Positions 15,141 to 63,946 of a stretch of 63,946 nucleotides of DNA are shown piece by piece. A program made the translations under genes and the position numbers. Below the pieces are notes generated by a model, which ran no database searches, had not been told where the DNA came from, and saw only the letters and a list, made by a program, of their open reading frames with translations. Position 1 is the stretch's first letter, and each line of letters starts with the position of its first letter. Source of the stretch: an uncultured Bacteroidales bacterium (GTDB taxonomy: Bacteria; Bacteroidota; Bacteroidia; Bacteroidales; UBA3663); contig CACZAY010000006.1 in assembly GCA_902779265.1 (NCBI GenBank), forward strand, positions 1 to 63,946, given 5' to 3'.

Positions 15141-15267
15141 CATCGGTTTTCGTGTTTTTCGTGGTTAAATCCATCGGCCAAAAATATTTTCGTGTTTTTC
15201 GTGCATTTCGTGGTTAAATCACATCGGCCAAAAACATTTTCGTGTTTTTCGTGCCTTTCGTGGTTAC
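15141..15267. repeat. about 2.5 tandem copies of a ~50-bp unit (CATCGGCCAAAAAyATTTTCGTGTTTTTCGTGCnTTTCGTGGTTAAATC)
   Basis: Direct reading: units start at 15141 (short), 15172 and 15222. They lie between the beta-helix gene and the aminopeptidase gene. Confidence 0.8.
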
Positions 15268-16801: not shown

Positions 16802-16922
16802 CCATCGTCCACATCCGTACCATAGGGACAAAATCGCTTATTGCGGTAAGCGATTTTCAAACAAAAAAGGTCACTGCGTTAAGCGAAATTCAACGGAAAT
16901 CGCTCAATGAAGTGACCTTTTT

Positions 16923-17040
16923 TGTAAAATAAGACAATGAAAAGTGATGAAATTTGCAAAATAAGACAATGAAAGCAGCCAAAAAGTGTAAAATAAGACA
17001 ATAAAATGGTCTGAAATTTGTAAAATAAGACAACCACCGC
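16923..17040. repeat. four tandem direct repeats with an exact 32-bp period (conserved TGyAAAATAAGACAA core)
   Basis: Copies start at 16923, 16955, 16987 and 17019. They abut the TAtcTTTG box of the ATPase gene. Confidence 0.85.
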
Positions 17041-26757: not shown

Positions 26758-27102
26758 ATGAGAAAAATCATCACATACGGCGGATATTTTGAGGCATTTA
26801 TGGAGACTCTCTCTGTAAGTGAACAACGGAAGGTCGATTATGTCGTGTCGCTACTTGCCACACAAAATCGCCTGCCTACCAAATTCATCAAACACATAAA
26901 AGATGAGCTGTTTGAATTGAGAATAATGTGGGACAGCAACATCTACCGCGTGTTTTTCATTTTTGACGAAGGAAACATTGTTGTTCTGTTCAGCGGATTC
27001 CAGAAAAAGACGCAGAAGACACCCAAAACGGAAATTGAAAAAGCGATAAAGATAAAGGAGGCATATTATGCAGACAAACAATCATCAGATAAAGGACTAT
27101 AG
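26758..27102 (+). CDS. type II toxin, RelE/ParE superfamily (HigB / phage Gp49-like)
   Basis: ..KHIKDELFELRIMWDSNIYRVFFIFDEGNIVVLFSGFQKKTQKTP.. is the Gp49/HigB-like core. The toxin-first gene order fits a HigBA arrangement. Confidence 0.8.
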   Translation: MRKIITYGGYFEAFMETLSVSEQRKVDYVVSLLATQNRLPTKFIKHIKDELFELRIMWDSNIYRVFFIFDEGNIVVLFSGFQKKTQKTPKTEIEKAIKIKEAYYADKQSSDKGL

Positions 27103-27501: not shown

Positions 27502-28796
27502 TTAGAATACGCCCTGAGCCATCATAGCCTTGGCAACCTTCATGAAGCCGGCAACGTTAGCGCCCTTCACGTAGTTGACATAGCCGTCGGCCTCGGTACC
27601 GTACTTCACGCAGTTCTCGTGGATGTTCTCCATGATCCAGAGCAACTTGGCGTCAACCTCCTCAGAAGTCCATGCGAGACGCTCTGAGTTCTGGGTCATC
27701 TCAAGACCTGATACCGATACACCACCAGCGTTAGAGGCCTTACCTGGAGAGTAGAGGATCTTGGCATCCTGGAACACCTTGATGGCGGCAGGAGTGGTAG
27801 GCATGTTGGCACCCTCGGCAACGGCGATAACACCATTGGCAACAAGAGCCTTGGCAGCCTCCTCGTTCAACTCGTTCTGGGTAGCGCAAGGCAGGGCGAT
27901 GTCAGCCTTCTCGAACCAAGGCTTCTGACCAGCTACATACTTAGCCTTTGGATACTGGTCAACATACTCCTTGATACGGCCACGCTGAACCTGCTTCAGG
28001 TCGAAGATGTAGTCCAACTTAGCGCGATCGATGCCATCTGGATCATAGATGTAGCCGTCTGAGTCAGACATGGTCATTGGGATACCACCCAACTGGAGAA
28101 CCTTCTCGGCAGCATACTGTGCAACGTTACCTGCACCAGAGATGAGCACCTTCTTGCCCTTGATCTCCTGACCCTTGGTGCGGAGCATAGCGCGGAGGAA
28201 GTAAACTGTGCCGTAGCCAGTAGCCTCAGGACGGATGAGTGAACCACCGAACTCGATGCCCTTGCCGGTGAGGACGCCCTGATACTGACGGGTGTACTTC
28301 TTGTAGGCACCGAACATGTAGCCAACCTCGCGGCCACCTACGCCGATGTCACCTGCTGGAACGTCGCAGTCAGGACCGATGTGGCGGGTCAACTCAAGCA
28401 TGAAAGCCTGGCAGAAACGCATAACCTCGGCGCTGCTCTTGCCACGTGGCGAGAAGTCAGAACCACCCTTGGCACCACCCATTGGCAGTGTGGTCAGAGA
28501 GTTCTTGAAAGTCTGCTCGAATGCGAGGAACTTCAGGATACCCAGGTTGACCGACTTGTGGAAACGGATACCACCTTTGTAGGGGCCAATGGCATTGTTG
28601 TGCTGGATGCGGTAGCCCATGTTGGTCTGGATATTGCCGTTGTCGTCCATCCAGGTAACGCGGAACTGATATACGCGATCCGGAATGCAGAGGCGCTCGA
28701 TCAGGTTGACCCGAGGACCTCTTCTACGGCCTGATGATACTCTGGCTCGTTAGGGAATCTGAGCTTAAGATTCTCAAGAACTTTCTTTGCGTCCAT
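27502..28796 (-). pseudogene. gdhA: NADP-specific glutamate dehydrogenase, disrupted near codon 32 (internal deletion plus frameshift)
   Basis: The N-terminal piece MDAKKVLENLKLRFPNEPEYHQAVEEVLGST* (28701-28796) and the body ..NLIERLCIPDRVYQFRVTWMDDNGN.. (down to 27502) are in different frames. About 15 conserved residues between them are missing. Confidence 0.8.
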
Positions 28797-39892: not shown

Positions 39893-40144
39893 TTGAGTTA
39901 TTAGATTTCAGTTATTAGTTAGGTTTTATCTTTCTGATAAGTTATTAGATACCAGTTATCAGTTAGGGTTCCGTCTGCGAGCAATCTAGTAACTAATAAC
40001 TAACAACTTTCATATCGTCTGCCGACAATAACTAATAACTAATAACTAATAACTCATAACTAATAACTTTCAGATTAGTCGGTTTCGTCGGCCGGCAATA
40101 ACTAATAACTCATAACTAATAACTTTCAGAAATAACTTGTCCAG
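39893..40144. repeat. AT-rich heptad word array (GTTATTAG on the left, CTAATAAC / ATAACTA on the right) inside the exbB-exbD spacer
   Basis: Direct reading: runs of AATAACTAATAACT.. separated by short GC-rich linkers (cgtctgccgac, cggtttcgtcggccggc). Left and right halves are mutually complementary. Confidence 0.8.
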
Positions 40145-42446: not shown

Positions 42447-43222
42447 TCATTCCACCAGCTCGCCCTGCACGGCACCGATTCGCTTCAAGTTGATGACGAC
42501 GCTGAGCGGACGATGATCGGGGTCGGTCGAGAGCCAGGCCTGGACGGGCGTACTGTCGCTGTCCTTGCTGGCAAATGTCAGCTCGACGGCATAGGACGGA
42601 TATTTCTTGCCCGACTTCATGGTGCACGTCTGCCGGCCCTTGTAGGTGATGTGCATACATTGGTTGCGCACGCCTGCCGTGATGTAGTAGTCGAGCCGTT
42701 CACCCTTCTTCATCGAGTCGAAATTGATGTTGCGCAACTCGTAGAAAATGGAAAGCATGTCGAAACCGACACCCTCGTTGCTCAACCGGCGGCGGTCGTT
42801 GCCCTTCTTGCTGCGCCAGCGGTACACATCGACCACGGTGCTGTCTATGTCTGACCTGTTGGCCTCCGACACGGATTTGCAGATTTTGCCATCCACGTAG
42901 CTGTGGTAGTAGTTGCGTTCGATGGCGCGGTAGCTGCCCTCGTTCGTCTTCTTGCAATACTCCAGCGGCACAAGCTGCGGCGTGTAGTAGCAGTCGCTGA
43001 AGGCGCTGGACACCATACCACAGAGCCATCGGCCAAAGTTTCTTCCCACTGGTTCAGCACGCCGCTGCCCGCCAGCTTCCAGATGAAGCCCCAGTGCCAA
43101 TAGGCGTTATATTTCAGCGATTCGGTTTGTCTGGACGTTTTGGCTTTTTCTATGGCCAATGCCGTTTGCGCGCTCCCACACAGGAGCCATGCGCCCAATG
43201 CCAAACAGATGATCTTTTTCAT
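42447..43222 (-). pseudogene. DUF3108-family protein gene interrupted by a frame shift near 43025-43035
   Basis: The N-terminal ORF (MKKIICLALGAWLLCGSAQTALA..YNAYWHWGFIWKLAGSGVLNQWEETLADG) and the 217-aa ORF (..LCGMVSSAFSDCYYTPQLVPLEY..) are contiguous but offset by one base. Confidence 0.65.
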
Positions 43223-49568: not shown

Positions 49569-50792
49569 ATGGCATTCGTAAACACAAACTTCACAAAAGT
49601 CAGCGAGTCGTACCTCTTCGTCGAGGTCGCCCGCCGCATCAAGGCATATCAGGAGGCTCACCCCGAGGCCAAAATCATCCGCATGGGCATCGGCGACGTC
49701 ACACGCCCCATCGTTCCAGCCGTCATCGAGGCACTCCACAAGGCAGTCGATGAAATGGGCACGGCCGACGGCTTCCGTGGCTACGGGCCAGAACAGGGCT
49801 ACGCCTTCCTGCGTGAGGCCATCTGCAACTACGACTTCAAGCAGCGCGGCATCGACATCCAGCCCGATGAAATCTTCGTGAGCGACGGCGCAAAGTCCGA
49901 CTGCGGCAACATCGGCGACATCCTTGGCCAACAGAACGTCATCGCCGTCACCGATCCCGTCTATCCCGTCTATGTCGATACGAACGTGATGGGCGGCCGC
50001 GCAGGCGACTTCGACGGCATCCGCTACAGCCGGATCTGCTATATGCCATGCACGCAGGAGAACGGTTTCGTGCCAACCCTGCCCTCGCAGCACGTCGATG
50101 TCATCTACCTCTGTTTCCCGAACAATCCGACAGGCACCACGTTGACCAAATCGCAGCTCAAAGTGTGGGTCGATTACGCACTACGCGAAAAAAGCATCAT
50201 TCTGTTCGATGCGGCCTACGAAGCCTTCATCACCGAAGACGACGTGCCGCACAGCATCTACGAGATTGAGGGTGCACGCCAATGCGCCATCGAGTTCCGA
50301 AGCTTCTCCAAGACGGCCGGATTCACGGGTCTGCGCTGCGGCTTCACCGTCGTTCCCAAGGAGCTTGTGGCCTACACCGAAGAGGGCAAAGCTGTCGCGC
50401 TCAACAGGCTCTGGAACCGCCGACAATCGACCAAGTTCAACGGCACGCCCTACATCGTACAGCGCGCAGCCGAGGCCGTCTATAGTCCCGAAGGCCGTGC
50501 TCAGATTATGGCCAACATCGCCTACTACCGCGAGAATGCCCGGCTGATGAAGCAGACCTTCGAGAGCATCGGCATCCCGGCATTCGGCGGCGTGAACAGC
50601 CCCTACGTCTGGATCAGGACTCCGCTCGACAGCTGGCAGTTCTTCGACCGACTGCTCGACGAATGTCACGTAGTGGGCACGCCAGGCGTCGGTTTCGGCC
50701 CATCCGGCCAAGGATATTTCCGTCTGACGGCGTTCGCCACGCACGAGGCCACACGCGAGGCCATGGAACGTATCAAGAAGTGGAAGCTTTGA
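49569..50792 (+). CDS. dapL: LL-diaminopimelate aminotransferase
   Basis: [48 protein letters not shown].. and ..[13 protein letters not shown].. (PLP Lys) are characteristic of DapL. Confidence 0.9.
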
Positions 50793-50879
50793 GTCATTGG
50801 CCAATGATATTATCCCCAGACACCCGCAGCGATTGTTTTCGTTGCGGGTGTAATATTTCTTTCACGTGGGCCATTGGCC

Positions 50880-53633
50880 TCAATAATAATAAATCTTTCC
50901 ATCTTCACCCACACCGCAGATGGAGACCTTCAGGTGGGCTGGACGCGCGCCGTTGTAGAACTGGATGTTTAGATTTCCGTCCTTGTCCGGATGGACATTC
51001 GGATTCCAATAGAGCGTGCGCCGATAATCGCTCGAATCGGGCAGTGCCGCGCCGGAATAGTCGCGATGGTAGAATTGTTCAGGATAGGCGAAGCCGTCAA
51101 TCAAGATGCGGCGGTCGCGGCGCATGGCCCGCTTCCCCTCGTTCGGAATCGGAACGACATCAAACCATACGTCGGGAACACCACGATTTTCTTCTTTGCC
51201 GACACCATTACGCATGTCATAGTCCGTAAAGACACGTACCTGTAGGATATGACGGGGATCAAGACGCTTCTTAAGAACTTGAGGAGACATTGGAGTCCCA
51301 ATACTACCTAATGTTGGTTCCGAGTACGTTTTTAATATTGCATGACCTTCAACCGATACCTTTAGATTGAATGATTGACGGGGATCATTCATGTTACCAA
51401 ACAATTCGCGCGCACTTTCATTCCAGAACATTATACCATTGAAGCAGCTATAATGCAACCCTTGGTCAATAGCATTATTCAACAACATATTGAAGTCATA
51501 GACAAATGCAGGTTTGCTGTAATCAAATGAATGCAAAGCGCGATGCACATTCTTCTTGATTGTAACATTTTTCAGAATATGGTCTGCATCATAGATTTCA
51601 TTTCGCGAAATATCTTCTTTCTCAATTTTCGAAGAATGAGTTTGTGCCCAAACATATGGTTTGCAGAATTTTGGGTAAAAAAAATCACGACGAACGTAAT
51701 AACTGGGAGAAACATAAGGATTGAGTTTTTCATAATCGATTAGGCTTGCAATACATTTTTTTATAGAATCTTTTTTTTCATAAGCGGTCATCATGAGAAT
51801 AGCCTGATCGTAGAAAGGAGGCATTTGAAAAATGAAATGGCCGTTACTGTCCACTTCGACCGCAATTCCTGCGATGTCACGACCTTTGTTCAACTCAGCC
51901 TCAACGATTATAGGGTGTTTTAAACCACTACTGTTTCGATTATATTGATCTTGTTGTGTATAAGTTTCCTGTCGTCTTTCTTCAACTTCTTCAATTTTTT
52001 TTTCAACTTCTTTTTGTAGCTTGTTTTCGAATCTTTCATTTAAATCTTCAAGCTCTTTCAACCCTTCTGCCTCATGCACATTTGCAAATTCGTCGTAAAG
52101 TACAATTTTGTTTTCTGGAGACAGTGTAAAAACGGCATTTCCCGTGTTATTCTTATCCACAATGTAATCCATCAGATCGAAACGCTCATACTCATCTTCT
52201 TTTAATTTGTAGATTTGACCTTCTACTGCAAATGATATCTCCGGCTGGAATCTCAGTTCCTCTACCGGCACATATTTCCGCCAGCCCTGAATCATCATCA
52301 GCTGGTCCAGTTTTTTTTGATGTTCCGCATCGTCGCCCTCAAAATAGCGCGCCGGATGAGCGACAAAACCACGCAGGTCGCCCGCCAGAAGCAGGTCGGT
52401 CAGGATGTTGCCATCGTCGTAGGTCGGTTCGTCACCGCGTCGGTCGCACACTGCAATACTCGCCGTTTTCAGTTGGCCGATGCTTGGCTGCAAGTTCAGT
52501 TTTTCAAACGGCTTTACGGCCAATGAATCAAACAAATTCAACTCGATTTTCTGTCCGATGTCACCGCGGTTCACGAATATCTGCCTTGTGGCCAATGGCC
52601 TTGCCTCCGTATCATAGGCCACAATCTCGTTCACGCCCGTCGGAAAATCTTTTGCGTCAATGGTTTGCGCATTTCGATTGAATGCAATCAACTTACCACG
52701 GCAGGTGACTGAAACGGCTGCAACGGCAACGCCATTGGCCACAATCCTGGCCTTCTGCCCGATCGGGTCGTAGGCAATGACCACGCCCGCTCCCTGGACT
52801 TCGGGCATTCTGGCCGTATATTTCTGCTCCAAATAGGTAAATTCCGCCTCCATCCGTTCGCCCTTTTGCGGCTTGATGGTAAGGACGCCACGCCCGTCAT
52901 CGTCGGTCTCAAGTTTTGTCCCATTGGCCAAAGAACCGATGATTTTCAATGGTTTTCCCTGCGCGTCAAGCACTTCGAATGCGACCCTGTTTTCCACATC
53001 AGCGAGTAGGGTTCCGCTCTCGGGATAGACCTTCACGTCGAGCCCCTCCTCCACACCCGCCAGGCGACGTTTCGGACGGTCAATGATACGCTTGTCGGCA
53101 TAGTTCCCAGTCTGCTCGGGCTTTTCGTAAATCGGCAGCACGCGGCTGTAAAGTCCCTCATAGTCACGGAAATAATCATTGGCCAACTCCTGATTGAAGA
53201 ACCAGCGGTCGTCAAAATCGCTGTGCGGCCGCTCCGTCACGTTGAAATTCAGCTGCCAGCGGGTGTAGGCGCGCAGTTCGTAGAAGCCAGAATACATCGT
53301 GTCTGGCAGGGCGAATTGGCCGAAACTCTGCGTATTATGATCCACGATGATTCGTTGACGTTCAACGAGATAGCCATCGGGCGAAAGCAGTTCGACATAC
53401 ATGATTTTGCTCATGTGGGATGGCCGATGGTCATCGGCCCGAAGCAAATAGGTCTTGAACCAGATCGTGTCGCCCACGAAATAGCTGTTGTTATCGGTAT
53501 GTACGTAGATTTTCTCCTGAACCTGCTCGCTGCTTCTCAGCTGATTTTCAAGTGAATCAATGGCATTGGCCAATGCCGTTTGAATCCCGAAGAACGCCAG
53601 CAGCGGCAACATGTTTTTCAAGTGATTTTTCAT
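50880..53633 (-). CDS. large secreted protein with N-terminal MG2 / alpha-2-macroglobulin-like fold; function unknown
   Basis: MKNHLKNMLPLLAFFGIQTALA signal peptide. ..KIYVHTDNNSYFVGDTIWFKTYLL..YVELLSPDGYLVERQ.. is MG2-like. The central third is compositionally foreign. Confidence 0.65.
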   Translation of the reverse strand: MKNHLKNMLPLLAFFGIQTALANAIDSLENQLRSSEQVQEKIYVHTDNNSYFVGDTIWFKTYLLRADDHRPSHMSKIMYVELLSPDGYLVERQRIIVDHNTQSFGQFALPDTMYSGFYELRAYTRWQLNFNVTERPHSDFDDRWFFNQELANDYFRDYEGLYSRVLPIYEKPEQTGNYADKRIIDRPKRRLAGVEEGLDVKVYPESGTLLADVENRVAFEVLDAQGKPLKIIGSLANGTKLETDDDGRGVLTIKPQKGERMEAEFTYLEQKYTARMPEVQGAGVVIAYDPIGQKARIVANGVAVAAVSVTCRGKLIAFNRNAQTIDAKDFPTGVNEIVAYDTEARPLATRQIFVNRGDIGQKIELNLFDSLAVKPFEKLNLQPSIGQLKTASIAVCDRRGDEPTYDDGNILTDLLLAGDLRGFVAHPARYFEGDDAEHQKKLDQLMMIQGWRKYVPVEELRFQPEISFAVEGQIYKLKEDEYERFDLMDYIVDKNNTGNAVFTLSPENKIVLYDEFANVHEAEGLKELEDLNERFENKLQKEVEKKIEEVEERRQETYTQQDQYNRNSSGLKHPIIVEAELNKGRDIAGIAVEVDSNGHFIFQMPPFYDQAILMMTAYEKKDSIKKCIASLIDYEKLNPYVSPSYYVRRDFFYPKFCKPYVWAQTHSSKIEKEDISRNEIYDADHILKNVTIKKNVHRALHSFDYSKPAFVYDFNMLLNNAIDQGLHYSCFNGIMFWNESARELFGNMNDPRQSFNLKVSVEGHAILKTYSEPTLGSIGTPMSPQVLKKRLDPRHILQVRVFTDYDMRNGVGKEENRGVPDVWFDVVPIPNEGKRAMRRDRRILIDGFAYPEQFYHRDYSGAALPDSSDYRRTLYWNPNVHPDKDGNLNIQFYNGARPAHLKVSICGVGEDGKIYYY

Positions 53634-53769
53634 TGGGTTGGGTGTTTTTTGACTGGATTTGTCGCGCAAATATAAAGATTTTGCACACAATCACCAAGTT
53701 CGGCTTACATTTTTATCAAAAATATAAAGAAATATAATACTATGTATTGCAAGGTAGTAAAATAATGCC

Positions 53770-53777
53770 TATATTTG
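53770..53777 (+). promoter_or_regulatory. -7 promoter box (TAtaTTTG) for the padR-pspC pair
   Basis: tatatttg lies 26 nt upstream of the ATG at 53803. Confidence 0.5.
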
Positions 53778-53802
53778 CGCCATCGGACATAAACATACGG
53801 AT

Positions 53803-54147
53803 ATGAACATTGAAAACGCAAAATCGCAGATGCGCAAGGGGATGCTGGAATACTGCATCCTACTGATACTGAACCGCGCGCCTTCGTACGCGACGGACAT
53901 CATCCGACGACTTGAAGAGGCTCAGCTGATTGTGGTCGAGGGAACGCTCTACCCCCTGCTCACACGGCTGAAGAACGACGGAATGCTGTGCTACGAGTGG
54001 AAGGAATCGCTCTATGGACCGCCACGCAAGTACTACGCGCTGACCGAGCAGGGCCGCGAATCGCTCCAGGCACTCGATGAGGCATGGGGAGCATTGGCCA
54101 ACACCGTAAATATCTTACGAAACGCTGAAAAACAAGACGAACAATGA
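53803..54147 (+). CDS. PadR family transcriptional regulator
   Basis: ..GMLEYCILLILNRAPSYATDIIRRLEE..EGTLYPLLTRLKNDGML..PRKYYALTEQG.. is the PadR winged helix. Confidence 0.85.
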   Translation: MNIENAKSQMRKGMLEYCILLILNRAPSYATDIIRRLEEAQLIVVEGTLYPLLTRLKNDGMLCYEWKESLYGPPRKYYALTEQGRESLQALDEAWGALANTVNILRNAEKQDEQ

Positions 54148-54986
54148 AGAAAAACATCAATATCAACCTTTTTGGCGTCAATTATGCCATCAACGAAGAC
54201 GCCTACGAGCTGCTCGAAACCTATCTCAACAGGGTCAAGCAATGTTTTGGCCAACGGGAAGGCGGCGAGGAAATAGCCGATGACATCGAACATCGCGTGG
54301 CCGAACTGCTCTGGGAGAAGAAGCAGCTGGGCGTCGAGACCATCGATCTGATGACTATCAAGACCATCCTGAAACAGATTGGAGAACCGGAGGAAATCAT
54401 GGGCGAAGAGGTTCCAAACGAGGATTTTTCGGCCAATGCTCCGGCTGAAGAAAACTCTGGAACGGGCGACGAAAATCCATCGGCCAAAGAGACAAAAACC
54501 GAAAAAGAGCCCCGGACAACCAAACGGAAGCTGTTCCGCGCGACACACGACAAGGTGCTGGGCGGCGTGCTGAGTGGACTCACCTATTATATGGGCGGCA
54601 GCAATCCGAACCTGCTACGCGCCATTGTGATTGCCATAGCATTGATTCCAATGTTCTGTTCACCGCTTTCCTTACTTTCGCACACATTCTTAGGCGGTTT
54701 CAGCCTCATCGTCAGCCTGTTCAACCTGTGTGACCCCGCATTCTGGAGCATCGTCATCTATATTTTATGCTGGATTCTCATTCCTGCGGCCGATACACCG
54801 GAAAAACGCGAGCAGCTGATGGGCAGGAAAGAGACATTGGCCAATACCCCAGACAAAAACAACTCGTCGGACGGCTGCATGAAAGGTTGTATCGTAGCAA
54901 TTATCGTCGTGGCAGTGCTGATTCTGGCGACATTCTACGGTTTATTTTCCTTCTTGCAACAGATGATAATGTTCAATCACATCTAA
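54144..54986 (+). CDS. PspC-domain membrane protein
   Basis: ..KLFRATHDKVLGGVLSGLTYYMG.. is a PspC domain followed by TM segments. ATGA overlap with padR. Confidence 0.75.
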   Translation: MKKNININLFGVNYAINEDAYELLETYLNRVKQCFGQREGGEEIADDIEHRVAELLWEKKQLGVETIDLMTIKTILKQIGEPEEIMGEEVPNEDFSANAPAEENSGTGDENPSAKETKTEKEPRTTKRKLFRATHDKVLGGVLSGLTYYMGGSNPNLLRAIVIAIALIPMFCSPLSLLSHTFLGGFSLIVSLFNLCDPAFWSIVIYILCWILIPAADTPEKREQLMGRKETLANTPDKNNSSDGCMKGCIVAIIVVAVLILATFYGLFSFLQQMIMFNHI

Positions 54987-55011
54987 GAAAAAAATGTTTA
55001 TAACTTATCAA

Positions 55012-55051
55012 AACGAAAGGCGATTTTTTCGGAAATCGCCTTTCGTTTTTT
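55012..55051 (+). terminator. rho-independent terminator
   Basis: AACGAAAGGCGATTT .. AAATCGCCTTTCGTT stem followed by TTTTTT. Confidence 0.75.
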
Positions 55052-55233
55052 GATAATGCCAAGGTGGAATTTGGCTTAAAATGCGAGAAAAAATTTGAAA
55101 CATTATTTAGAATACGAAACATTTTCGAGACTTAGAGTCTGTTTTTATGTGGAAAATAATTTAAAGAGGTGGAAAATTTAGGTGTAATAATTCTTTTTGA
55201 CGAATTTTATTTGCATGGCCGATTTTTTTGCCG

Positions 55234-55241
55234 TATCTTTG
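55234..55241 (+). promoter_or_regulatory. orphan -7 promoter box (TAtcTTTG) with no downstream ORF
   Basis: tatctttg at 55234 with a TTTG about 24 nt upstream. The only thing downstream on this strand is a terminator hairpin at 55333-55363. Confidence 0.4.
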
Positions 55242-55247
55242 CAGTGC

Positions 55248-55363
55248 AATTCGAAAGAGTTGCTCCCAAATGTCTCTATAAAATACTGACTTTTTAGGGT
55301 CGTCAGTTTTAGTTAGTAGTATTAGTGGTTGGAATCAGCTCCCTGTGAAGGGCGCTGATTTTT
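55248..55363 (+). ncRNA. candidate small RNA (~115 nt, family not recognised)
   Basis: Promoter box at 55234. Internal hairpin CTGAC..GTCAG (about 55286-55306). Terminal hairpin AATCAGC tccctgtgaagggc GCTGATT plus a T-run. No ORF longer than 4 codons. Confidence 0.25.
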
Positions 55364-55371
55364 CTTTTCTC

Positions 55372-56667
55372 CTATCCCCGCAGAACTTTTCGCGCCATCG
55401 CGGTCTGCACTACACTACGCACGACAAGATACACCACGAAGGCGAGCCACAAGTGATGGTTCGTCGGCAGCGCCATTGGCCAAAACCAGAGGACAAAGAA
55501 TACGGCTGCTGCAATAGCAAGCGTATAGAGCATCTGCCGTGTGGCCGTCGCGCCGATGAAGATGCCATCCCACATAAACGTTGCAAAACCGGCGAGGGGA
55601 ATGGCCAATGTCCACGGAAGATAGGGCTGGGCGGCATCAATGACAGATGTATCATCGGTCAAAAGGCGGAGAATGCCATTGGCCGCAAAGAAATAAATCG
55701 TCGTGAAAAGCAGCGTCACTCCACTTGCCCAACCGAAAAGGCGACGGACGCACATCATCTTTCTCTCATGACTCTTCGCACCGACATACTTACCAACAAG
55801 CGCCTCACCCGCCAACGCGAATCCGTCGCAAAAATAGCTGAACAGGATAAAGAGCTGTATGAGTAGTGTATTTACGGCCAATAGCATGTCGCCCTGACGC
55901 GCGCCGAAACTCGTGAAAGCTGTCGTGACGGCAATGATGCAGATCATGCGTAGGAAAATGTCACGGTTGACACGAAAGAAATCGGCCAAGCTCAATTCCC
56001 GCGCCGTATCGATAGTTCCGTCAGCCGGATGAAGATGGATGCGCCGCACGAGGAAAAGTGCCACAGCGAGCCCACAATACTGCGAAATGACAGTACCCAA
56101 GGCAACGCCACGCACGCCCAATCCGAACTGGAAGACAAGCAGAGCCGATACAGCAATGTTAAGCAGGTTTTGGCCAATGGCGATATACATCGGGAAACGC
56201 GAATTCTGCATTCCGACGAACCATCCGTTCAGCGCAAAAAGCGAGAGCACGGCCGGCGCCGCCCAGATGCGAATATGGAAATAGGTGATGGCCAATGCCC
56301 AGACTTCATCGGTCGGAGCGATGATGATGTGCGCAAGCCACTCAATGGGCCATTGCAGCGCAAATATCCCGACACCACACACGACGGCCACCGTAAGCGC
56401 CATGCGCAACACGCGACGCTCCCCTGCGCCATCCTCGCGGCCAAAGCGTTGTGCCGTCAGACCGCTGCTTCCCATACGCAGAAAGGCAAACAACCAATAA
56501 ATCATGTTGAAGATGAGCCCACCCACCGATATGGCGCCTATGGCCAATGCTCCGCCGTCGGCCGAATCAATATGGCCAACGATGCTGAGGTCAATGATGC
56601 CCAGCAGCGGAATGGTGATGTTGGTGATGATACTCGGAATCGCAATGCGAAGGATTTCTCGGTTCAT
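55372..56667 (-). CDS. MATE family efflux transporter
   Basis: MNREILRIAIPSIITNITIPLLGIIDLSIVGH.. with a 12-TM pattern. Confidence 0.85.
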   Translation of the reverse strand: MNREILRIAIPSIITNITIPLLGIIDLSIVGHIDSADGGALAIGAISVGGLIFNMIYWLFAFLRMGSSGLTAQRFGREDGAGERRVLRMALTVAVVCGVGIFALQWPIEWLAHIIIAPTDEVWALAITYFHIRIWAAPAVLSLFALNGWFVGMQNSRFPMYIAIGQNLLNIAVSALLVFQFGLGVRGVALGTVISQYCGLAVALFLVRRIHLHPADGTIDTARELSLADFFRVNRDIFLRMICIIAVTTAFTSFGARQGDMLLAVNTLLIQLFILFSYFCDGFALAGEALVGKYVGAKSHERKMMCVRRLFGWASGVTLLFTTIYFFAANGILRLLTDDTSVIDAAQPYLPWTLAIPLAGFATFMWDGIFIGATATRQMLYTLAIAAAVFFVLWFWPMALPTNHHLWLAFVVYLVVRSVVQTAMARKVLRG

Positions 56668-56772
56668 TGGCCAAGGAAATCAATAACCTCACCCGAACTG
56701 GCCGAGTGAGGTAAATTGGAAATAAATAATGGTCGTATTTTCTCCCCTTAGGGAGGTCTTGAAAAGAGGAAT

Positions 56773-57906
56773 TTACCCCTTCAGCGACTTCTCGAAGCGT
56801 TCGAGGAAGAGGTCGCATTCCTTTTGGCCGATGCAGAGCGGCGGCAGGATACGCAACACATTGGTGCCAGCGGCTCCGGTGAATACGTGCTGGTCGTAAA
56901 TCAGACGGTTGCGGACCTCCTTGTACGGATAGTCGAACTCGATGCCGATCATCAGGCCACGGCCACGCAGTTCCTTCAAGCCGGGGATGTTCATCGACTT
57001 GAGCTGCTGCATCAGATATTCGCCCTGCTTGGCGGCATTCTCGACCAACTTCTCGTCCTGAATCACATCGAGCACGGTGCAGGCCAATGCGCAGCCCAGA
57101 TGGTTACCTCCGAATGTCGTACCCAATTGGCCATAAACCGGAGTGAATTTGGGCGAAATCAGCACGCCGGCGAACGGATAACCGTTGGCGATGCCCTTGG
57201 CCACAGTGATGATGTCGGGACGGATGCCTGCATATTGGTGGGCGAAGAACTTGCCTGAACGGCCGTAGCCCGACTGAATCTCGTCGAGGATGAGCACTAC
57301 GTTGTTTTCTTCGGTCACCTTGCGTAGCTGCTGCATGAACTCGGTGGTCGGAATGTGGATTCCGCCGACGCCGCTGATGCCCTCGATGATGACGGCTGCG
57401 ACATCACCATTGGCAATGCTTGCCTTGATGCCCTCAATGTCGCCCAACGCGAAGAATTCGACCGGGAAAGTCGAGTTGATTGGTGCCTGGATCTTCGGAT
57501 TCTGGGTGACGTTAACCGCAGCCGAAGTACGTCCGTGGAAGGCGTGGGAGAATGCAATAACTTTCTTCTTGCCGGTATAGAACGATGCCAGTTTCAGCGC
57601 GTTCTCGTTGGCCTCAGCACCCGAATTGATGAGGAACAGCTGGTAGTCATCGTAGCCGCTCACCTTGCCAAGTTTTTCGGCCAATTTGACCTGCAATGGG
57701 TTCTTCACTGCATTCGAGTAGAAACACAGCTTCGATGCCTGCTCCTGCATGGTCTGCAAATAGCGTGGATGGCCATGGCCGATGGAAATCACGGCGTGTC
57801 CGCCATAGAAGTCGAGATACTCCTGACCTTTTTCGTCGTACACATAGCATCCTTTGCCATGGTCGATGGTCACATCAAAAAGTGGATATACGTCAAAAAG
57901 TTTCAT
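56773..57906 (-). CDS. argD: acetylornithine aminotransferase (class III aminotransferase)
   Basis: ..DFYGGHAVISIGHGHP.., ..LILDEIQSGYGRSGKFFA.. It lies adjacent to argC. Confidence 0.85.
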   Translation of the reverse strand: MKLFDVYPLFDVTIDHGKGCYVYDEKGQEYLDFYGGHAVISIGHGHPRYLQTMQEQASKLCFYSNAVKNPLQVKLAEKLGKVSGYDDYQLFLINSGAEANENALKLASFYTGKKKVIAFSHAFHGRTSAAVNVTQNPKIQAPINSTFPVEFFALGDIEGIKASIANGDVAAVIIEGISGVGGIHIPTTEFMQQLRKVTEENNVVLILDEIQSGYGRSGKFFAHQYAGIRPDIITVAKGIANGYPFAGVLISPKFTPVYGQLGTTFGGNHLGCALACTVLDVIQDEKLVENAAKQGEYLMQQLKSMNIPGLKELRGRGLMIGIEFDYPYKEVRNRLIYDQHVFTGAAGTNVLRILPPLCIGQKECDLFLERFEKSLKG

Positions 57907-58018
57907 TTTCTTTTAGGTTTTGAGGTTATGAGGTCGCGTCGCTTGTGAGGTTTTGAGGTAATATTCAAAGGCGATTCCAGAGGTATACAACCTAAAAACC
58001 TTACAACCTTATGACCTT
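57907..58018. repeat. second, inverted copy of the ~100-bp structured intergenic element seen at 39364-39467
   Basis: AGGTTTTGAGGTTATGAGGTCGCGTCGCTTGTGAGGTTTTGAGGT .. CAACCTAAAAACCTTACAACCTTATGACC. It fills the argC-argD spacer. Confidence 0.75.
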
Positions 58019-58504
58019 TTAAAATGCGATTGCCTTCAAGTTCAGGCCAGCCTTTTCGTCGAGACCGAACATCAGGTTCATGTTCTGGACGGCTTGTCCG
58101 ACGGCACCCTTCAGCAAGTTGTCAACCATCGAGGTGACGACAACCTTGCGGCCGAACACATCGACATGGACGAGTGCCTTGTTGGTGCCGACCACCTGCT
58201 TGAGGTCGATGGCTGCGTCACTGTAGTGAGTGAATGCGGCATCGGCATAGAAATCCTTGTAGAGCGTGGCAACTTCATCGGCCGACATTGCCTTCTTCAG
58301 ACGGATGACCTCGGTGCAGAAGATGCCACGTGCGAAGTCGCCGCGATACGGAATGAAATCGACCGTGATGCCGTCGGCCTCATAGCCCTCGTTGAGCGTA
58401 TCGACCACACGCGGAGCACCCGCTGGAGCCAGTTCGTTCAACGTCTGCGTGATTTCGTGCAGATGCTGGTGCGTGAAGAGGCGCGTGTCCGTCAGGCGGT
58501 TCAC
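58019..58504 (-). pseudogene. argC: N-acetyl-gamma-glutamyl-phosphate reductase, 3' half only (about 160 of about 320 codons)
   Basis: ..FTHQHLHEI..DFIPYRGDFARGIF..NLLKGAVGQAVQNMNLMFGL.. is the ArgC C-terminal domain. Homology stops at about 58504 and no N-terminal NAD-binding half follows. Confidence 0.8.
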
Positions 58505-58930
58505 CGGCGCACGGTACGCAGATGGGCACTCGGCGGAAGTGGCACGTTAGCCGTTGCAGCGATTCTGGTGCTGGCCGTTATTCTGGTTCCGACGATCAAA
58601 ACGATGCACCAGTATAGCACGCAGTATGTGGCAAGCATCGAGACCGAAGCGTTCCGAGGCGGTGACGAGATGAGTATGAAGCTCTGTGAGGCGATGGTCA
58701 AGATGAAACGGGGTCAGTGGGTGGAAGCCGAACGGATAGCAGACACGCTGCTGGAGCAGACCGCTGATTCGGAGGACGAAGAGGACATAGACATCCGCCA
58801 GAGCGCCGAATGGATCAAAGCCCTCTGCCTCATGCATGACGGCAAGATCTTCTCCGCACGAAAACTGCTGAAACGTATCGCTGCCGGTGACAGTTATTAC
58901 AGTCCGCTCGCTGAAGAGCTATTGAGATAA
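58505..58930 (+). pseudogene. 5'-truncated gene for a small single-pass membrane / helical-repeat protein
   Basis: The frame reads ..RRWALGGSGTLAVAAILVLAVILVPTIKTMHQ..LLKRIAAGDSYYSPLAEELLR*. There is no start codon before the TM helix, and the first in-frame ATG is at 58604. The tracked ORF start at 58094 is only antisense read-through of argC. Confidence 0.5.
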
Positions 58931-58999
58931 ACGGTTTTTCAATGTTTCTGCCGCAAAGAAACAGGTAAATCAATTATTAATAATTAAACATTTACACAC

Positions 59000-59701
59000 A
59001 TGAAAAAAGTTTTGTTTTTCTCCGCTGTTGCACTGAGTGCAATCATGATGGTATCGTGCAACAAGCCTGCTGCTCAGACTGAAGAGAAAGAGGCTATCGA
59101 GCAACCTGCATCGCAAGAGATGGACGCTATCCGCACCGCGCTGGCTCTGGCTCAGTATGGTTACGCTGCTGAATCTCCGGCTGCTCTGATCGAGGCTGCT
59201 GACATTCTCGCTTCTACTCCGGTACAACCGGTAGCCGTTGAGGGTGAGGTAGGTGCACAGAACGAGAACGAAGGTGAGAAGGCTGCAAAGCCAGAGGTTA
59301 CTGTTGAGCAACTGCTTGCTGACGCTCGCGCACTGACCGAGGACGCAAACCTGCTGGCTCTGGCTGACAAGGTAGCTGCTAAGGCTGCTGAAAGCGCAGA
59401 GGCAACTCGTGGTGCTTACGGTGGTCCGAAGTATCAACGTGACCGCGTTTACTCTCACAGCTACATTCAGTACGTTCAGGCTTTCTATGCAAGCCAAATC
59501 GCTGAGGTATCTGTAGTAGGTGACGGTGATACCGACCTTGACCTCTACATCTATGACGAGAACGGTAACCTCATCGTTTCTGACACCGGTTACACCGATC
59601 GTTGCTACGTTCGTTGGTGCCCGCGTTGGACAGGTAACTTCCTCGTTCGCGTGGTTAACCGTGGTGGTGTTTACAACAACTTCACAATTGCTACTAACTA
59701 A
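59000..59701 (+). CDS. lipoprotein with C-terminal pre-peptidase (PPC)-like beta-sandwich
   Basis: MKKVLFFSAVALSAIMMVSC lipobox; Ala/Glu-rich helical region; C-terminus ..VSVVGDGDTDLDLYIYDENGNLIVSDTGYTDRCYVRW..GNFLVRVVNRGG.. fits the D.DL.LYD.NG pattern. Confidence 0.6.
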   Translation: MKKVLFFSAVALSAIMMVSCNKPAAQTEEKEAIEQPASQEMDAIRTALALAQYGYAAESPAALIEAADILASTPVQPVAVEGEVGAQNENEGEKAAKPEVTVEQLLADARALTEDANLLALADKVAAKAAESAEATRGAYGGPKYQRDRVYSHSYIQYVQAFYASQIAEVSVVGDGDTDLDLYIYDENGNLIVSDTGYTDRCYVRWCPRWTGNFLVRVVNRGGVYNNFTIATN

Positions 59702-59719
59702 TTCTTCTTTGTCGGCCTG

Positions 59720-60634
59720 ATGGAAATGCCTATCAGGCCGGCATGTCTTTTGATGGCTATGAATCGTTCTATTCTTATCTGTGTGTTAGCAACGATGTTG
59801 CTGTTACCGGTGCATGCTACGAAGCGTGCGCTTATTATCGGTATAGGTGCTTATCCTGAATCCACCGGATGGGCGAAGATCAACGGAGATAAGGATGTAG
59901 CTACCGTAGAGCAGATGCTGATCAGCAAAGGTTTTCTCAAAGCCAACATCGTCAAGTTGAGCAATGCGCAGGCTACAGCCGCCGGTATCAAAGCGGCGTT
60001 GGAGAACCTCATTCAGGTATCTGCCAAGAACGATTTTGTGTATATTCATTTCTCCGGTCACGGTCAGCGTATCACCGACACGAGCGGAGATGAGACGAGT
60101 GGTTATGACGAAGCATGGGTACCCTATGACGCGCAATTCGCCTACGAAGAAGGATCGGGTTTGTTCGTCAAGAAAGGCGGTTACCAAGGTCAGAACCATT
60201 TAGTGGACGATGAACTCAACGAATACCTCTACCGCCTGCGTCAGAAAGTGGGACGCGAAGGACAGATCATCGTTATTGCCGATGCTTGCCACAGTGGAGG
60301 CGGGTCGAGAGCGCTGGATGATGAGGACGAAGAACCGTTGGTGGTCAGAGGTACACGCGATGATTTCATCATTCCTTCCGCATCCAGAACGCCGCAGGTA
60401 GGAGGACATGTTGTGGATTGGATCTTTATCAGCGCCTGCAAATCGACCCAGAGTAACTACGAGTACCATGGTACCGGTTCGCTGACCTATGCGTTACAGC
60501 AGTTATCGGCGCAGTTTGACCAGCTCTCTTGTGCGGAGTTACAAGCCCGCTTACGTGCCATCCTGCGGGATATCATTCCTTTCGTGCAGACACCTACCGT
60601 GGAGACTCCGACGCCGGACGACACATTCTTTTGA
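59720..60634 (+). CDS. secreted peptidase C14 (caspase/orthocaspase-like)
   Basis: Signal peptide (alternative start at 59753, MAMNRSILICVLATMLLLPVHA). KRALIIGIGAY..; catalytic dyad contexts YIHFSGHGQ (His codon 60059-60061) and VIADACHSGGG (Cys codon 60287-60289). Confidence 0.8.
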   Translation: MEMPIRPACLLMAMNRSILICVLATMLLLPVHATKRALIIGIGAYPESTGWAKINGDKDVATVEQMLISKGFLKANIVKLSNAQATAAGIKAALENLIQVSAKNDFVYIHFSGHGQRITDTSGDETSGYDEAWVPYDAQFAYEEGSGLFVKKGGYQGQNHLVDDELNEYLYRLRQKVGREGQIIVIADACHSGGGSRALDDEDEEPLVVRGTRDDFIIPSASRTPQVGGHVVDWIFISACKSTQSNYEYHGTGSLTYALQQLSAQFDQLSCAELQARLRAILRDIIPFVQTPTVETPTPDDTFF

Positions 60635-60639
60635 TAACC

Positions 60640-61065
60640 ATGCGACGCGCCTTGTGTATATATACATTGGGTTTCTTGGCTGCATTTCTATGCGCAGGAT
60701 GTATATGGGCACAAAGCGCCAAAACGGAGACATCTGCCCGAAAAGCGGCTAAGTATGTAGCCCAAAAACTCTGCAAAGAGCACAAAGGGGAAGAGTTGTT
60801 GGATGACCTGGAAGAGATGATGGCCGGCCTGATGTTAGCCTGCACCCTTCCACCGGAGCCTATCGATCTCGAAGAAGAAGAACAAAATCCTGATTCCGAC
60901 GACCAGAATGCCACACGGCGTGACCGACGAAACCGCAGACAGCGGGACAAGCAGCGTCGTGACCGACAGCGAGACAAACGGTCTTCCCGAACCGACTCAC
61001 GCCGCGTTCGCACGCGGTACAGAACGCGTAGAAGGACGGAAGACGACAACGAATCAGCCTCATGA
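60640..61065 (+). CDS. small lipoprotein-like protein with an acidic block followed by a poly-Arg tail
   Basis: MRRALCIYTLGFLAAFLCAGC.. signal/lipobox; ..EPIDLEEEEQNPDSDDQ..; then RRDRRNRRQRDKQRRDRQRDKRSSRTDSRRVRTRYRTRRRTEDD. Its stop overlaps the next start (ATGA at 61062-61065). Confidence 0.6.
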   Translation: MRRALCIYTLGFLAAFLCAGCIWAQSAKTETSARKAAKYVAQKLCKEHKGEELLDDLEEMMAGLMLACTLPPEPIDLEEEEQNPDSDDQNATRRDRRNRRQRDKQRRDRQRDKRSSRTDSRRVRTRYRTRRRTEDDNESAS

Positions 61066-63602
61066 AAACCCTTCTGTTATCCATACTGATTTCTTCTATG
61101 TCCATGGCCGACTCGCTGCTCGACCAGGCCGTCCTTTTGCAGGATCAGGCGATGCACGAGCAGGCTTTGGCGCAATGCGAGCAACTCTTAGCCGCAGCGG
61201 ACTCGTCAGGCTATACGGATACGGAATGGAAAGTGTCGGTGCTCCAAACGATCATCACCTCCCTCGATGAGTTGGGGCGCTACGATGAGGCTATCTATTA
61301 CTGCAAGCAAATCGTGGCGATGGGTGCGGACGTGCCGCCGGATGAACGCGCGTACGCGCAGGCGGACATGGCTTCTTTCTATGTGCTGATAGGCCATCTG
61401 CCGCAAGCTACCCGAACCGCTTTCGAGGCCATCAAAACCGCCAAACAGTATATTGCTGCCAATAATTCAAAGTGGTTAGCGGCTCGTGATTATGACGCGT
61501 TCGCAGAAGGCGCGCAATTGATGGAATACGTCGTTCGGCAATGTTTCACCGCTTTGTCCGAAGGTTATGTGGCGGCAGACGAAGCATCTCAAGCCATGCT
61601 GGTGGCAGAGTTTGATGTTCCTGCCTTCAAGCAACTCTTCCGTACCTCCTATGAGCAAGTATCGGTCATGGCTGATAAAGCCGCTGCAGGTTCGGCGCTC
61701 TATCGTATGCTGTGCAGTCAGCAGCAGTCCTATGGCGCCATGCTATGCGAAGCCATCCTGCTGGAGGCGGATTTTGCGCCGACCGAACAAGACAAGCGCG
61801 CTATCTTGGGTCAGATAGCCGGCTTGAATCCTACCTTACCTGACTATGAACTGCGTGCCGATGTGCGTATTGCGGCATCGTTTGCGCAAGAAGAGAAATA
61901 CGACAGCGCGCAGGTCTATTGGGAGAGAGTCGCGCAGACGGACTCGCTTCAGACCTATGCCGCTGTGATTGAAGAGAATAAAGCCTGGACGGCCGTGCAA
62001 CACAGGGATTGGACGCATGCCCTGCCATGGCTCCGGCAATCGCTGCAAGACAAACGTCAGAATCTGAAAAGCGAGTTCTTGTGGCTCAGCGCACGTTCCA
62101 GACAACGGACGTGGTTGACAAACTACGCATGGTATTTTGCCCAGAATATATCCCTCTGTGCCCTTGCCGAGCACCCGGACGAAGTCAATGCCTTTATCTA
62201 TGACAACGTACTGCTCGAGAAGGGTATTCTGCTATCTACCGAAACGGAACTGGAGATGCTCTTGCAGGAAACGGGAGGCAGAGCGGTGTTAGACAGTCTG
62301 CACGCATTGCGTCATATACGGCATCAGTTGTATCTGTCGGAAAAGGACCAAACCGTTCATCCGGATACTCTTGCCGCTCGCAAACGGGCTGCAGCCAATC
62401 TGGAATTGCATATCCTCCGAGCCTGTCACAATGTAGGGGATTTCACGCGACTGCTGGACTTGACCTGGCAGGATGTCCAAGCCCGATTAAAGGACCATGA
62501 GACGGTGGTGGAGTTCATCCAGACCGAAGACGCCGACAACGAGCGCTGGATGCAAGCCCTTGTGCTGCGCAAAGGATGGTCATACCCGAAACTGCTGACG
62601 GTCGGAAAAGCTAAAGAGGTGGAGCAATGGTGTGCGTCCAACACCCTCTATGAGAACAAAGAAACTACCCGTCGCATATGGCAACCGATTATAGAAACGG
62701 CGGGCATACAAGCCGGTCAAACGGTCTATTTCTCGCCGGACGGTATATTCTATCTGACCGGCATCGAATACCTGCCTGTAGATACAACAACCCTCTTTGA
62801 CCGCTATAACATGGTTCGCCTCTCCTCTTCACGCGAACTGTGCCGGCAAACGCAGGCGAATCCGGAGGAACAAACCATCCTCTATGGAGGTGTGATCTAT
62901 GCGGATGACGAGAACGACCGACGAATCGATTACCTCTCTTCTACTTTGGACGAGGTGCAGCAGATCGATTCGATCATACCGCACAGTGCGCTCTATACCG
63001 GATTGGAGGCTACCGAAGAGTCGTTCAAAGACCTGTCCGGACATTCTCCGCAAACGCTTCATATGGCAACACACGGCTTCTATCTGAAGAACAAAAAAGC
63101 ACAATCCATGATGCAGAAGAATGTGCAGTTCGTGCGTCTGACGGAGCGGCAACGGATCAATATCGAAGATTATGCATTGGCGCGCTGCGGCTTGCTCATG
63201 GCGCATTCGTCTTCTTCGTATTCGGGAGACTCGATCTCCACCACGCGGGACGACGGTGTCTTGACCGCCAAAGAGATTGCCGCTTTGGATCTGCACAAGA
63301 CCGAACTGGTCGTTCTATCCGCCTGCAAATCCGGACTCGGAGACATCACCGTGGACGGTATAGCGGGTCTGCAGCGCGGTTTCAAGAAAGCAGGCGTACA
63401 AGCAATGCTGATGACCTTATGGCCCATTGACGATACGGCCAGCAGGATTTTTATGTACGCCTTCTATCAGAGTCTTGTTGCAGGCCAAACCAAGCAAGCG
63501 GCCTTACGGCATGCCCAGCAGACACTGCGCGCGATGGAGGAGTATAACTATCCGCGTTATTGGGCTGCGTTTGTACTGTTGGACGCTATTCCTAAAGAAT
63601 AA
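61062..63602 (+). CDS. TPR-like repeat + CHAT domain (caspase-fold) protease with N-terminal signal-like segment
   Basis: The N-terminal ~500 aa are helical repeats. The C-terminal CHAT domain has ..TLHMATHGFYL.. (His codon 63072-63074) and ..LVVLSACKSGLGD.. (Cys codon 63324-63326), ending ..RYWAAFVLLDAIPKE. Confidence 0.85.
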   Translation: MKTLLLSILISSMSMADSLLDQAVLLQDQAMHEQALAQCEQLLAAADSSGYTDTEWKVSVLQTIITSLDELGRYDEAIYYCKQIVAMGADVPPDERAYAQADMASFYVLIGHLPQATRTAFEAIKTAKQYIAANNSKWLAARDYDAFAEGAQLMEYVVRQCFTALSEGYVAADEASQAMLVAEFDVPAFKQLFRTSYEQVSVMADKAAAGSALYRMLCSQQQSYGAMLCEAILLEADFAPTEQDKRAILGQIAGLNPTLPDYELRADVRIAASFAQEEKYDSAQVYWERVAQTDSLQTYAAVIEENKAWTAVQHRDWTHALPWLRQSLQDKRQNLKSEFLWLSARSRQRTWLTNYAWYFAQNISLCALAEHPDEVNAFIYDNVLLEKGILLSTETELEMLLQETGGRAVLDSLHALRHIRHQLYLSEKDQTVHPDTLAARKRAAANLELHILRACHNVGDFTRLLDLTWQDVQARLKDHETVVEFIQTEDADNERWMQALVLRKGWSYPKLLTVGKAKEVEQWCASNTLYENKETTRRIWQPIIETAGIQAGQTVYFSPDGIFYLTGIEYLPVDTTTLFDRYNMVRLSSSRELCRQTQANPEEQTILYGGVIYADDENDRRIDYLSSTLDEVQQIDSIIPHSALYTGLEATEESFKDLSGHSPQTLHMATHGFYLKNKKAQSMMQKNVQFVRLTERQRINIEDYALARCGLLMAHSSSSYSGDSISTTRDDGVLTAKEIAALDLHKTELVVLSACKSGLGDITVDGIAGLQRGFKKAGVQAMLMTLWPIDDTASRIFMYAFYQSLVAGQTKQAALRHAQQTLRAMEEYNYPRYWAAFVLLDAIPKE

Positions 63603-63617
63603 AATATGATCCTATAC

Positions 63618-63946
63618 ATGAAAAAACTCACTCTCATCGGCCTTGGTCTCCTGTTCTGCCTCACTGCGAGTGCAGAGTTGAGCGAGAAGAAAATGCTTAG
63701 CGATGCAAAAGCCATCTCTAAAGTGCTGTACTCCGATCCCGACCAGTGCAAGCACCTTGACAAACCCATGCTGGATATTATCTGCAATGGCAGTACGGCG
63801 CAACGCAGATGGTTAGTGGAGCGCTTGCTGGAACTGGATATCAACCGCCTAAGTGAGAAGAACAAACGGCAGTACCTGAGTTGGTTCTTGCTGCTTATCA
63901 AATATCAGAGTCTGGACGCACCTTATTACGTACAAATCGCGGGTGA
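63618..63946 (+). CDS. secreted hypothetical protein, 3' end outside the window
   Basis: Not in the ORF track because there is no stop before the window end. Hand translation gives (MILY)MKKLTLIGLGLLFCLTASAELSEKKMLSDAKAISKVLYSDPDQCKHLDKPMLDIICNG.. It starts 4-16 nt after the CHAT stop. Confidence 0.5.
   Translation, partial: MKKLTLIGLGLLFCLTASAELSEKKMLSDAKAISKVLYSDPDQCKHLDKPMLDIICNGSTAQRRWLVERLLELDINRLSEKNKRQYLSWFLLLIKYQSLDAPYYVQIAG

Follow-up and report, generated by a model that had tools for sequence, protein, structure and literature searches.

Chimeric nodes and the chimeric contigs that follow from them are a recognized problem of de Bruijn-graph assembly (PMC8640167). The locus described here shares with such misassemblies the presence of two genomes in one sample, a breakpoint within an exact k-mer-sized match, flanks that are normal in other assemblies, a switch in composition, and genes cut on both sides. 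It differs in the origin of the shared word, as chimeric nodes are usually caused by a longer repeat such as an rRNA, an IS element or a conserved gene, whereas here a conserved argC motif and an unrelated gene happen to have 20 nt in common.

Two kinds of biological event also resemble the locus. In microhomology-mediated or homology-facilitated illegitimate recombination, as described for natural transformation, foreign DNA is likewise joined at a short identity and both genes are disrupted, but the junction studied here has a longer microhomology, lacks a one-sided homologous anchor, is found as a recombinant in no independent assembly, and is accompanied by both parental alleles, each at 100% identity, in one sample. 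Genomic islands inserted in housekeeping genes likewise present a compositionally foreign block abutting a truncated housekeeping gene; unlike such islands, the block considered here comes without recombinase, att site or tRNA, its breakpoint is internal to one of its own genes, and its native context is constant.

Here, we analyzed a 63,946-nt stretch of DNA (the window, by which we mean the whole stretch) in which an argC gene is cut short and followed by a block of different character. Sequence comparisons lead us to conclude that the window is very probably an inter-genome chimeric contig, an assembler's false join of two rumen Bacteroidales, and not the product of a biological insertion.

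Results and discussion

The breakpoint lies in a 20-nt word shared by two parents

When the window was compared with native loci by BLAST, the left alignment stopped at 58480 and the right alignment started at 58461, placing the breakpoint at window positions 58461 to 58480 with an overlap of exactly 20 nt. A three-way alignment showed that this stretch, AGATGCTGGTGCGTGAAGAG, is exact in both parents, which are unrelated to each other directly on both sides of it; the crossover is inside this 20-mer. An abrupt junction had been called in the original prediction at about 58,505, and its existence stands, although it is located 25 to 44 nt to the left of that coordinate. The features at and to the left of the junction are as follows.

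56773 to 57906, minus strand: argD, acetylornithine aminotransferase, 377 aa, intact (Pfam Aminotran_3, 7e-103; TIGR00707 argD, 1.5e-109)
58019 to 58480, minus strand: argC 3' part, codons 186 to 338 of the native 338 plus the stop (TIGR01850, PF22698; 100% identical to contig L001 up to 58480)
58461 to 58480, no strand assigned: junction word AGATGCTGGTGCGTGAAGAG, read on the minus strand as LFTHQHL of ArgC and on the plus strand as (E)MLVREE of the small protein to its right

To see how exceptional the word is, 64 kb of the left parent can be set against 29 kb of distinct right-parent sequence. Every word of at least 16 nt common to the two is a sub-word of AGATGCTGGTGCGTGAAGAG, and no 21-nt word is shared between them. 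As only 0.003 shared 20-mers are expected by chance in the DNA compared, the location of the join on AGATGCTGGTGCGTGAAGAG is not coincidental; between two whole genomes of 3 Mb, about 16 shared 20-mers would be expected, so that the existence of some such word somewhere is unremarkable. The breakpoint thus falls within an exact 20-nt match of its two sources, a length close to an assembler's k or minimum-overlap size.

The word sits in a conserved part of argC, and seven other Bacteroidales-type argC loci in the GTDB representative genomes have it. In these genomes AGATGCTGGTGCGTGAAGAG matched 17 loci, comprising eight that are unlike the window beyond the word, eight on the argC/argD side (seven of which align up to the 20-mer at 58480) and one from the right parent; none of the 17 spans the junction. 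The scan of GTDB species representatives also found that RUG11479 and SRR873602_bin.50 carry one of the two AGATGCTGGTGCGTGAAGAG copies each. The exact word is present as well in a contig labelled as an Oscillospiraceae bacterium (CAVAHD010000020.1, L023), where it accompanies an argD-argC pair 67 to 74% identical at the nucleotide level to the Bacteroidales-type genes of the window; this contig may be mis-binned.

The argC gene is intact in the native left-hand locus

The truncated argC covers positions 204 to 342 of the 345-position TIGR01850 profile, with 105.1 bits against a cut-off of 233.6, and its Pfam content is the C-terminal dimerization domain PF22698 alone. Profile searches found neither the N-terminal NAD(P)-binding Semialdhyde_dh domain (PF01118) nor the active-site region in the window argC. 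With TIGR01850 below its cut-off and PF01118 absent, the window copy is not recognizable as a full-length functional argC, in agreement with the earlier observation that ArgC homology is confined to the C-terminal domain and that the N-terminal half is missing. The homology had further been said to extend to 58504, which is where the open reading frame list ends the minus-strand fragment (58019 to 58504). This part did not hold: native ArgC reads ...NDNMSVYK-LFTHQHLHEI (NDNMSVYKLFTHQHLHEI) across the breakpoint, so the VNRLTDTR read there in the window is antisense of the right-hand gene and not ArgC.

Two metagenome contigs retrieved with the exact ArgD protein (L001 and L002) supply the native left-hand locus. 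Both have the gene order argR, a 196-aa gene, argG, pspC, argC (338 aa), argD and MatE, and in both an identical ArgD adjoins an intact argC, which assigns argD to the left (host) genome. The first of them (ENA ERZ27280307:k141_591872, 46 kb) is 100.000% identical to window positions 50773 to 58480, over 7,708 nt with zero gaps; past the breakpoint it carries the other 185 argC codons, then pspC, argG and argR, and its 338-aa ArgC has both domains. The second is 99.9% identical to the window and likewise continues into an intact argC.

These two contigs bear directly on the proposal that the junction could be a recombination or insertion scar that inactivated arginine biosynthesis, a proposal that a full-length argC elsewhere was expected to weaken. 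Two contigs, 100% and 99.9% identical to the window, do have a full-length argC in exactly this place, leaving the scar unsupported, and there is no evidence for a loss of arginine biosynthesis.

Further to the left, an 86.8-kb scaffold from sample SAMEA5383921 (scaffold_332, L032) matches window positions 27078 to 48346 at about 100%. Just two short length differences separate it from the window, one of about 43 nt at 28711 and one of about 22 versus 71 nt at 42996 to 43019, which could be repeat-length variation or assembly noise. The closest GTDB representative for the left side is the metagenome-assembled genome SRR873602_bin.50 (L017), with 94.7% identity over argC-argD.

The right-hand block belongs to a conserved protease-gene cluster

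The 5.5 kb to the right of the breakpoint contain the following genes.

58463 to 58930, plus strand: small membrane-anchored protein, 155 aa from ATG (native sequence in contig L028; weak TPR and HemY_N matches)
59000 to 59701, plus strand: predicted lipoprotein, 233 aa, with a signal peptide ending in a Cys lipobox (weak N-terminal match to NF050142, PG1828 family lipoprotein)
59720 to 60634, plus strand: caspase-like C14 peptidase, 304 aa (PF00656, 2e-19)
60640 to 61065, plus strand: 141-aa protein with a signal peptide and a highly charged Arg/Asp-rich tail (translation; called in most native contigs)
61062 to 63602, plus strand: TPR and CHAT-domain protein, 846 aa (PF12770 CHAT, 6e-54)
63618 to 63946, plus strand: 5' end of a second large CHAT-domain gene that runs off the window (translation; about 1193 to 1197 aa in native contigs)

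A 10,077-nt contig (ERZ27280307:k141_1107727, L028) is 100.000% identical to window positions 58461 to 63946 over 5,486 nt, and it is the one contig on which the exact 846-aa CHAT protein is on record. Beyond the breakpoint, in the upstream direction, it carries the small gene's native 5' end followed by the 184-aa and trypsin-like genes, and downstream it extends 2.5 kb past the window end. Many contigs retrieved with the exact 233-aa lipoprotein show the native order, a trypsin-like gene (380 aa) followed by genes for proteins of 184 aa, 173 aa and 233 aa, the caspase-like peptidase, the 141-aa protein, and CHAT proteins of 846 and 1197 aa. A second scaffold (scaffold_8964, L030, from sample SAMEA5383921) matches the right part at 99.98%, and among GTDB representatives a 151-kb contig (L016) from "uncultured Bacteroidales bacterium RUG11479" shares 99.2% identity with the block. 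The exact 233-aa lipoprotein is found on 21 contigs, every time in the protease cluster. The window end at 63946 is not a point of strain divergence of the kind expected where a contig ends naturally.

The small gene at the junction had been described as lacking a start codon, which is mistaken: an in-frame ATG lies within the 20-mer at 58463 and is the called start in 10 native contigs, yielding the 155-aa product. The alternative native model has 173 aa; the window lacks its first 18 codons as well as the region upstream. Homology to the small gene starts at 58461, so at most 18 of 173 codons are missing, and the 155-aa and 173-aa calls in native contigs share identical upstream DNA. Truncation of this gene had also been predicted; the coding sequence, if the 155-aa model is the right one, may be complete in the window with nothing replaced except what lies upstream.

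The block forms one portion of a conserved, roughly 13-kb cluster with five protease-type genes (window 58463 to 63946; L034 to L043), encoding a trypsin-like serine protease, the caspase-like C14 peptidase, two large CHAT proteins and a TPR protein with a retropepsin-like Asp-protease domain, with small membrane or lipoprotein genes interspersed. More than 20 assemblies, including several that stem from rumen metagenome work, carry the cluster at 99% conservation, and it is possibly a conflict or defense island. What lies upstream of it varies, and may be Fic, Sel1 or extra TPR-CHAT genes or a string of small open reading frames.

A mobile genomic island (an ICE, a transposon or a prophage-like element) that carried the protease cluster into argC would account for a foreign block next to a broken gene, and the strain variability of the region upstream of the trypsin-like gene in the right-hand species (Fic, Sel1, extra TPR-CHAT) points in that direction. 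We nevertheless consider such an insertion extremely improbable. The breakpoint falls inside a gene of the cluster and not at the end of an element, and the same block does not occur in different contexts, the upstream DNA being identical in all native contigs (21 of 21). The usual marks of mobility were not found either: the window has no tRNA genes; Pfam and profile searches detected no integrase or transposase domains in the right-hand 5.5 kb or in the native neighbor genes; and the join shows no meaningful direct or inverted repeats, no terminal inverted repeat and no target duplication. The junction is thus not a border marked by a recombinase, a repeat or a tRNA, and the far border is outside the window. 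Furthermore, the native cluster is flanked by housekeeping genes that have the same GGCC-poor signature as the cluster itself.

Composition changes at the junction

The original prediction had noted that a motif dense to the left of the junction is absent to its right, and counting confirmed this for all three forms of the motif: TTGGCCAA occurs 58 times on the left and 0 on the right, GGCCAATG 63 and 0, and CATTGGCC 69 and 0. The hexamer TGGCCA shows the same pattern with 106 and 0 copies, and GGCC falls from 658 to 15, that is, from a density of 11.3 to 2.7 per kb. If the left-hand rate applied to the right-hand 5.5 kb, this stretch would contain 5.4 copies of TTGGCCAA, 9.9 of TGGCCA and 61.5 of GGCC, and the deficits are significant under a Poisson model (P of 4e-3, 5e-5 and 1e-12, respectively). 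A windowed tetranucleotide comparison, which had been suggested as a check, does show a shift at the junction, where the distance to the left reference rises and the distance to the right block falls.

Codon choice and G+C content had both been said to look different across the junction. The former does: GC3 is 0.63 to 0.82 in left genes versus 0.49 to 0.65 in right genes, and the shares of Gly GGC (0.63 versus 0.22) and Ala GCC (0.56 versus 0.27) diverge. Locally, G+C hardly does, ranging from 0.49 to 0.58 on both sides (overall 0.555 on the left and 0.524 on the right). Bulk G+C was rejected as a discriminator because the local values of the two sides overlap, whereas oligonucleotide and codon measures do discriminate.

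This contrast is relevant to the reading that both pieces come from one genome, brought together either by an intragenomic rearrangement or by an assembler's false join of two loci of the same organism. Both pieces are Bacteroidales from the same samples and are similar in bulk G+C, in keeping with a single origin, yet the remaining compositional evidence makes this reading barely credible. TGGCCA has a density of 1.8 per kb on the left, with 19 to 30 copies in left-lineage loci, versus 0 to 3 copies in each of ten right-parent loci of 16 to 21 kb; GGCC occurs at 7 to 11 per kb in left-lineage loci versus 1.4 to 1.7 per kb in the same ten, and the right-parent flanks with housekeeping genes (a SPOUT methyltransferase and an ion channel) are equally GGCC-poor. 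Codon usage differs between the sides, as given above. The left signature persists past the breakpoint in L001 and the right signature is present on both sides of it in L028. In addition, among GTDB species representatives the right block is found on a contig of RUG11479, and the closest relative found for the left side is a different representative, SRR873602_bin.50.

The motif itself deserves description. The palindrome CATYGGCCRATG is greatly over-represented in the left genome (window 1 to 58460, for example, at 2144, 3639 and 56667), where TTGGCCAA was observed 58 times versus 0.84 expected from base composition; GGCCGATG has 55 copies in the left part, CATCGGCC 47, and the full 12-mer CATTGGCCAATG 11. 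Copies of TTGGCCAA occur in all three codon phases (24, 11 and 3), and 20 of the 58 lie outside long open reading frames, which make up 77% of the DNA; for these reasons, CATYGGCCRATG resembles a signal at the level of DNA, comparable to highly iterated palindromes or uptake sequences, rather than a protein motif. L001, L002 and L032 also contain it, and the 94.7%-identical L017 has one TTGGCCAA in 8 kb. The right genome, in turn, has about 1.5 GGCC per kb versus about 3.9 expected at 50% G+C and is nearly without TGGCCA (L003 to L010, L028 to L030 and L034 to L051; window 58481 to 63946), a depletion that would fit avoidance of a GGCC-type restriction site. The left part also holds tandem repeats, consisting of AATAACT six times with an adjacent ATAACTAATAACTC twice (40027 to 40124), a 50-nt unit repeated 2.4 times that contains CATCGGCCAA (15147 to 15266), and a 32-nt unit repeated 3.5 times (16921 to 17033).

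Both parents occur in the same samples and the junction in no other assembly examined

Both parents are present at 100% identity in a single sample, ERZ27280307, as separate uninterrupted contigs with intact genes. Sample SAMEA5383921 likewise keeps the two genomes apart, one on scaffold_332 (about 100%) and the other on scaffold_8964 (99.98%). All 21 right-parent contigs examined at the nucleotide level have native sequence upstream of the 20-mer, and both left-parent contigs (L001 and L002) have native argC, so that the junction is seen in 0 of the 21 right-parent and 2 left-parent contigs from independent assemblies. Exact look-up found no record of the products of the junction open reading frames, namely, argC fragments of 161, 140 and 129 aa and a 278-aa fused antisense product, and the 155-aa small-protein model is on record solely in native contexts. 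An exact 44-nt junction pattern was not found in IMG/VR viral contigs. It was also unmatched in JGI metagenome contigs, a result of little weight as the same pattern scan missed its control, a 36-nt right-parent pattern known in L006, which is a contig from JGI metagenome 3300041743.

The most serious biological contender is a real recombination between species, in which a cell of the left-hand lineage acquired DNA from the right-hand species and short-homology or illegitimate integration across the 20-nt identity replaced the 5' half of argC and what followed, creating an arginine auxotroph with a partial protease cluster. The exact identity at the crossover could guide recombination, as phage-type single-strand annealing proteins can support homology-guided events at around 20 nt, and both species share habitat and samples. 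Weighed against this, both flanks are 100% identical to contigs from one sample in which each locus is intact, which demands a very recent event, and the junction recurs in no other assembly, with the 21 right-parent and 2 left-parent contigs all native. The 20-nt microhomology exceeds the 3 to 12 nt usual in illegitimate recombination and equals a typical assembler k. There is no visible second junction or anchor homology, and the event would have destroyed an essential biosynthetic gene while leaving the neighboring argD perfectly intact. We therefore regard a recombination of this kind as improbable, if somewhat less so than a mobile island or a single source genome, and the accompanying proposition, that the event was so recent that both flanks are still 100% parental in the same animal, as equally hard to credit.

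An assembler's false join is the probable origin of the contig

An assembly chimera, the other explanation offered in the original prediction, is strongly favored by the 100% parents in one sample, the sole shared word and the failure of the junction to reappear elsewhere. Under this explanation, bases 1 to 58480 would come from one rumen Bacteroidales, a CATYGGCCRATG-rich genome with high GC3 and a normal argR-...-argG-pspC-argC-argD cluster, and bases 58461 to 63946 from a different one, GGCC-poor and 99.2% identical to RUG11479, as a segment of a protease-gene cluster with trypsin-like, caspase-like and CHAT members. The two co-resident genomes share one exact 20-nt word by chance. In a small-k de Bruijn graph (k of 20 or 21), that word would form a single node through which a path could cross between the genomes, especially once low-depth branches had been pruned. 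Iterative assemblers feed small-k contigs into later rounds as pseudo-reads, by which route a false join could persist; a contig-merging step that accepts overlaps from about 20 nt upward would have the same outcome.

The two parents, their identity with the window, their intact state elsewhere, their co-occurrence in one sample and the word they share at the join are observations; that software rather than a cell produced the join, and which assembler and k did so, is our inference. A k of 20 to 21 is the usual smallest k of IDBA-UD, MEGAHIT and metaSPAdes. As a 20-nt overlap would not alone survive a final graph with k of 55 to 141, we assume that the artifact came from a low-k iteration, by carry-over, or from a merging step. 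Near-identical strains come from the rumen MAG compendium of Stewart 2019, whose single-sample assemblies were made with IDBA-UD without mink being set (PMC6785717); use of the option '-mink 20' is documented.

Conclusions

The value of this case lies in the quality control of the contig, which should be split at 58461 to 58480 and its last 5.5 kb removed from its genome bin. The locus also offers a cheap, reference-free sign of chimerism, in that an abundant host motif, CATYGGCCRATG, stops dead at the false join. Left unsplit, the contig would lead to wrong inferences of arginine auxotrophy and of inter-species transfer among Bacteroidales, and to the assignment of the caspase-like/CHAT protease cluster to the wrong genome.
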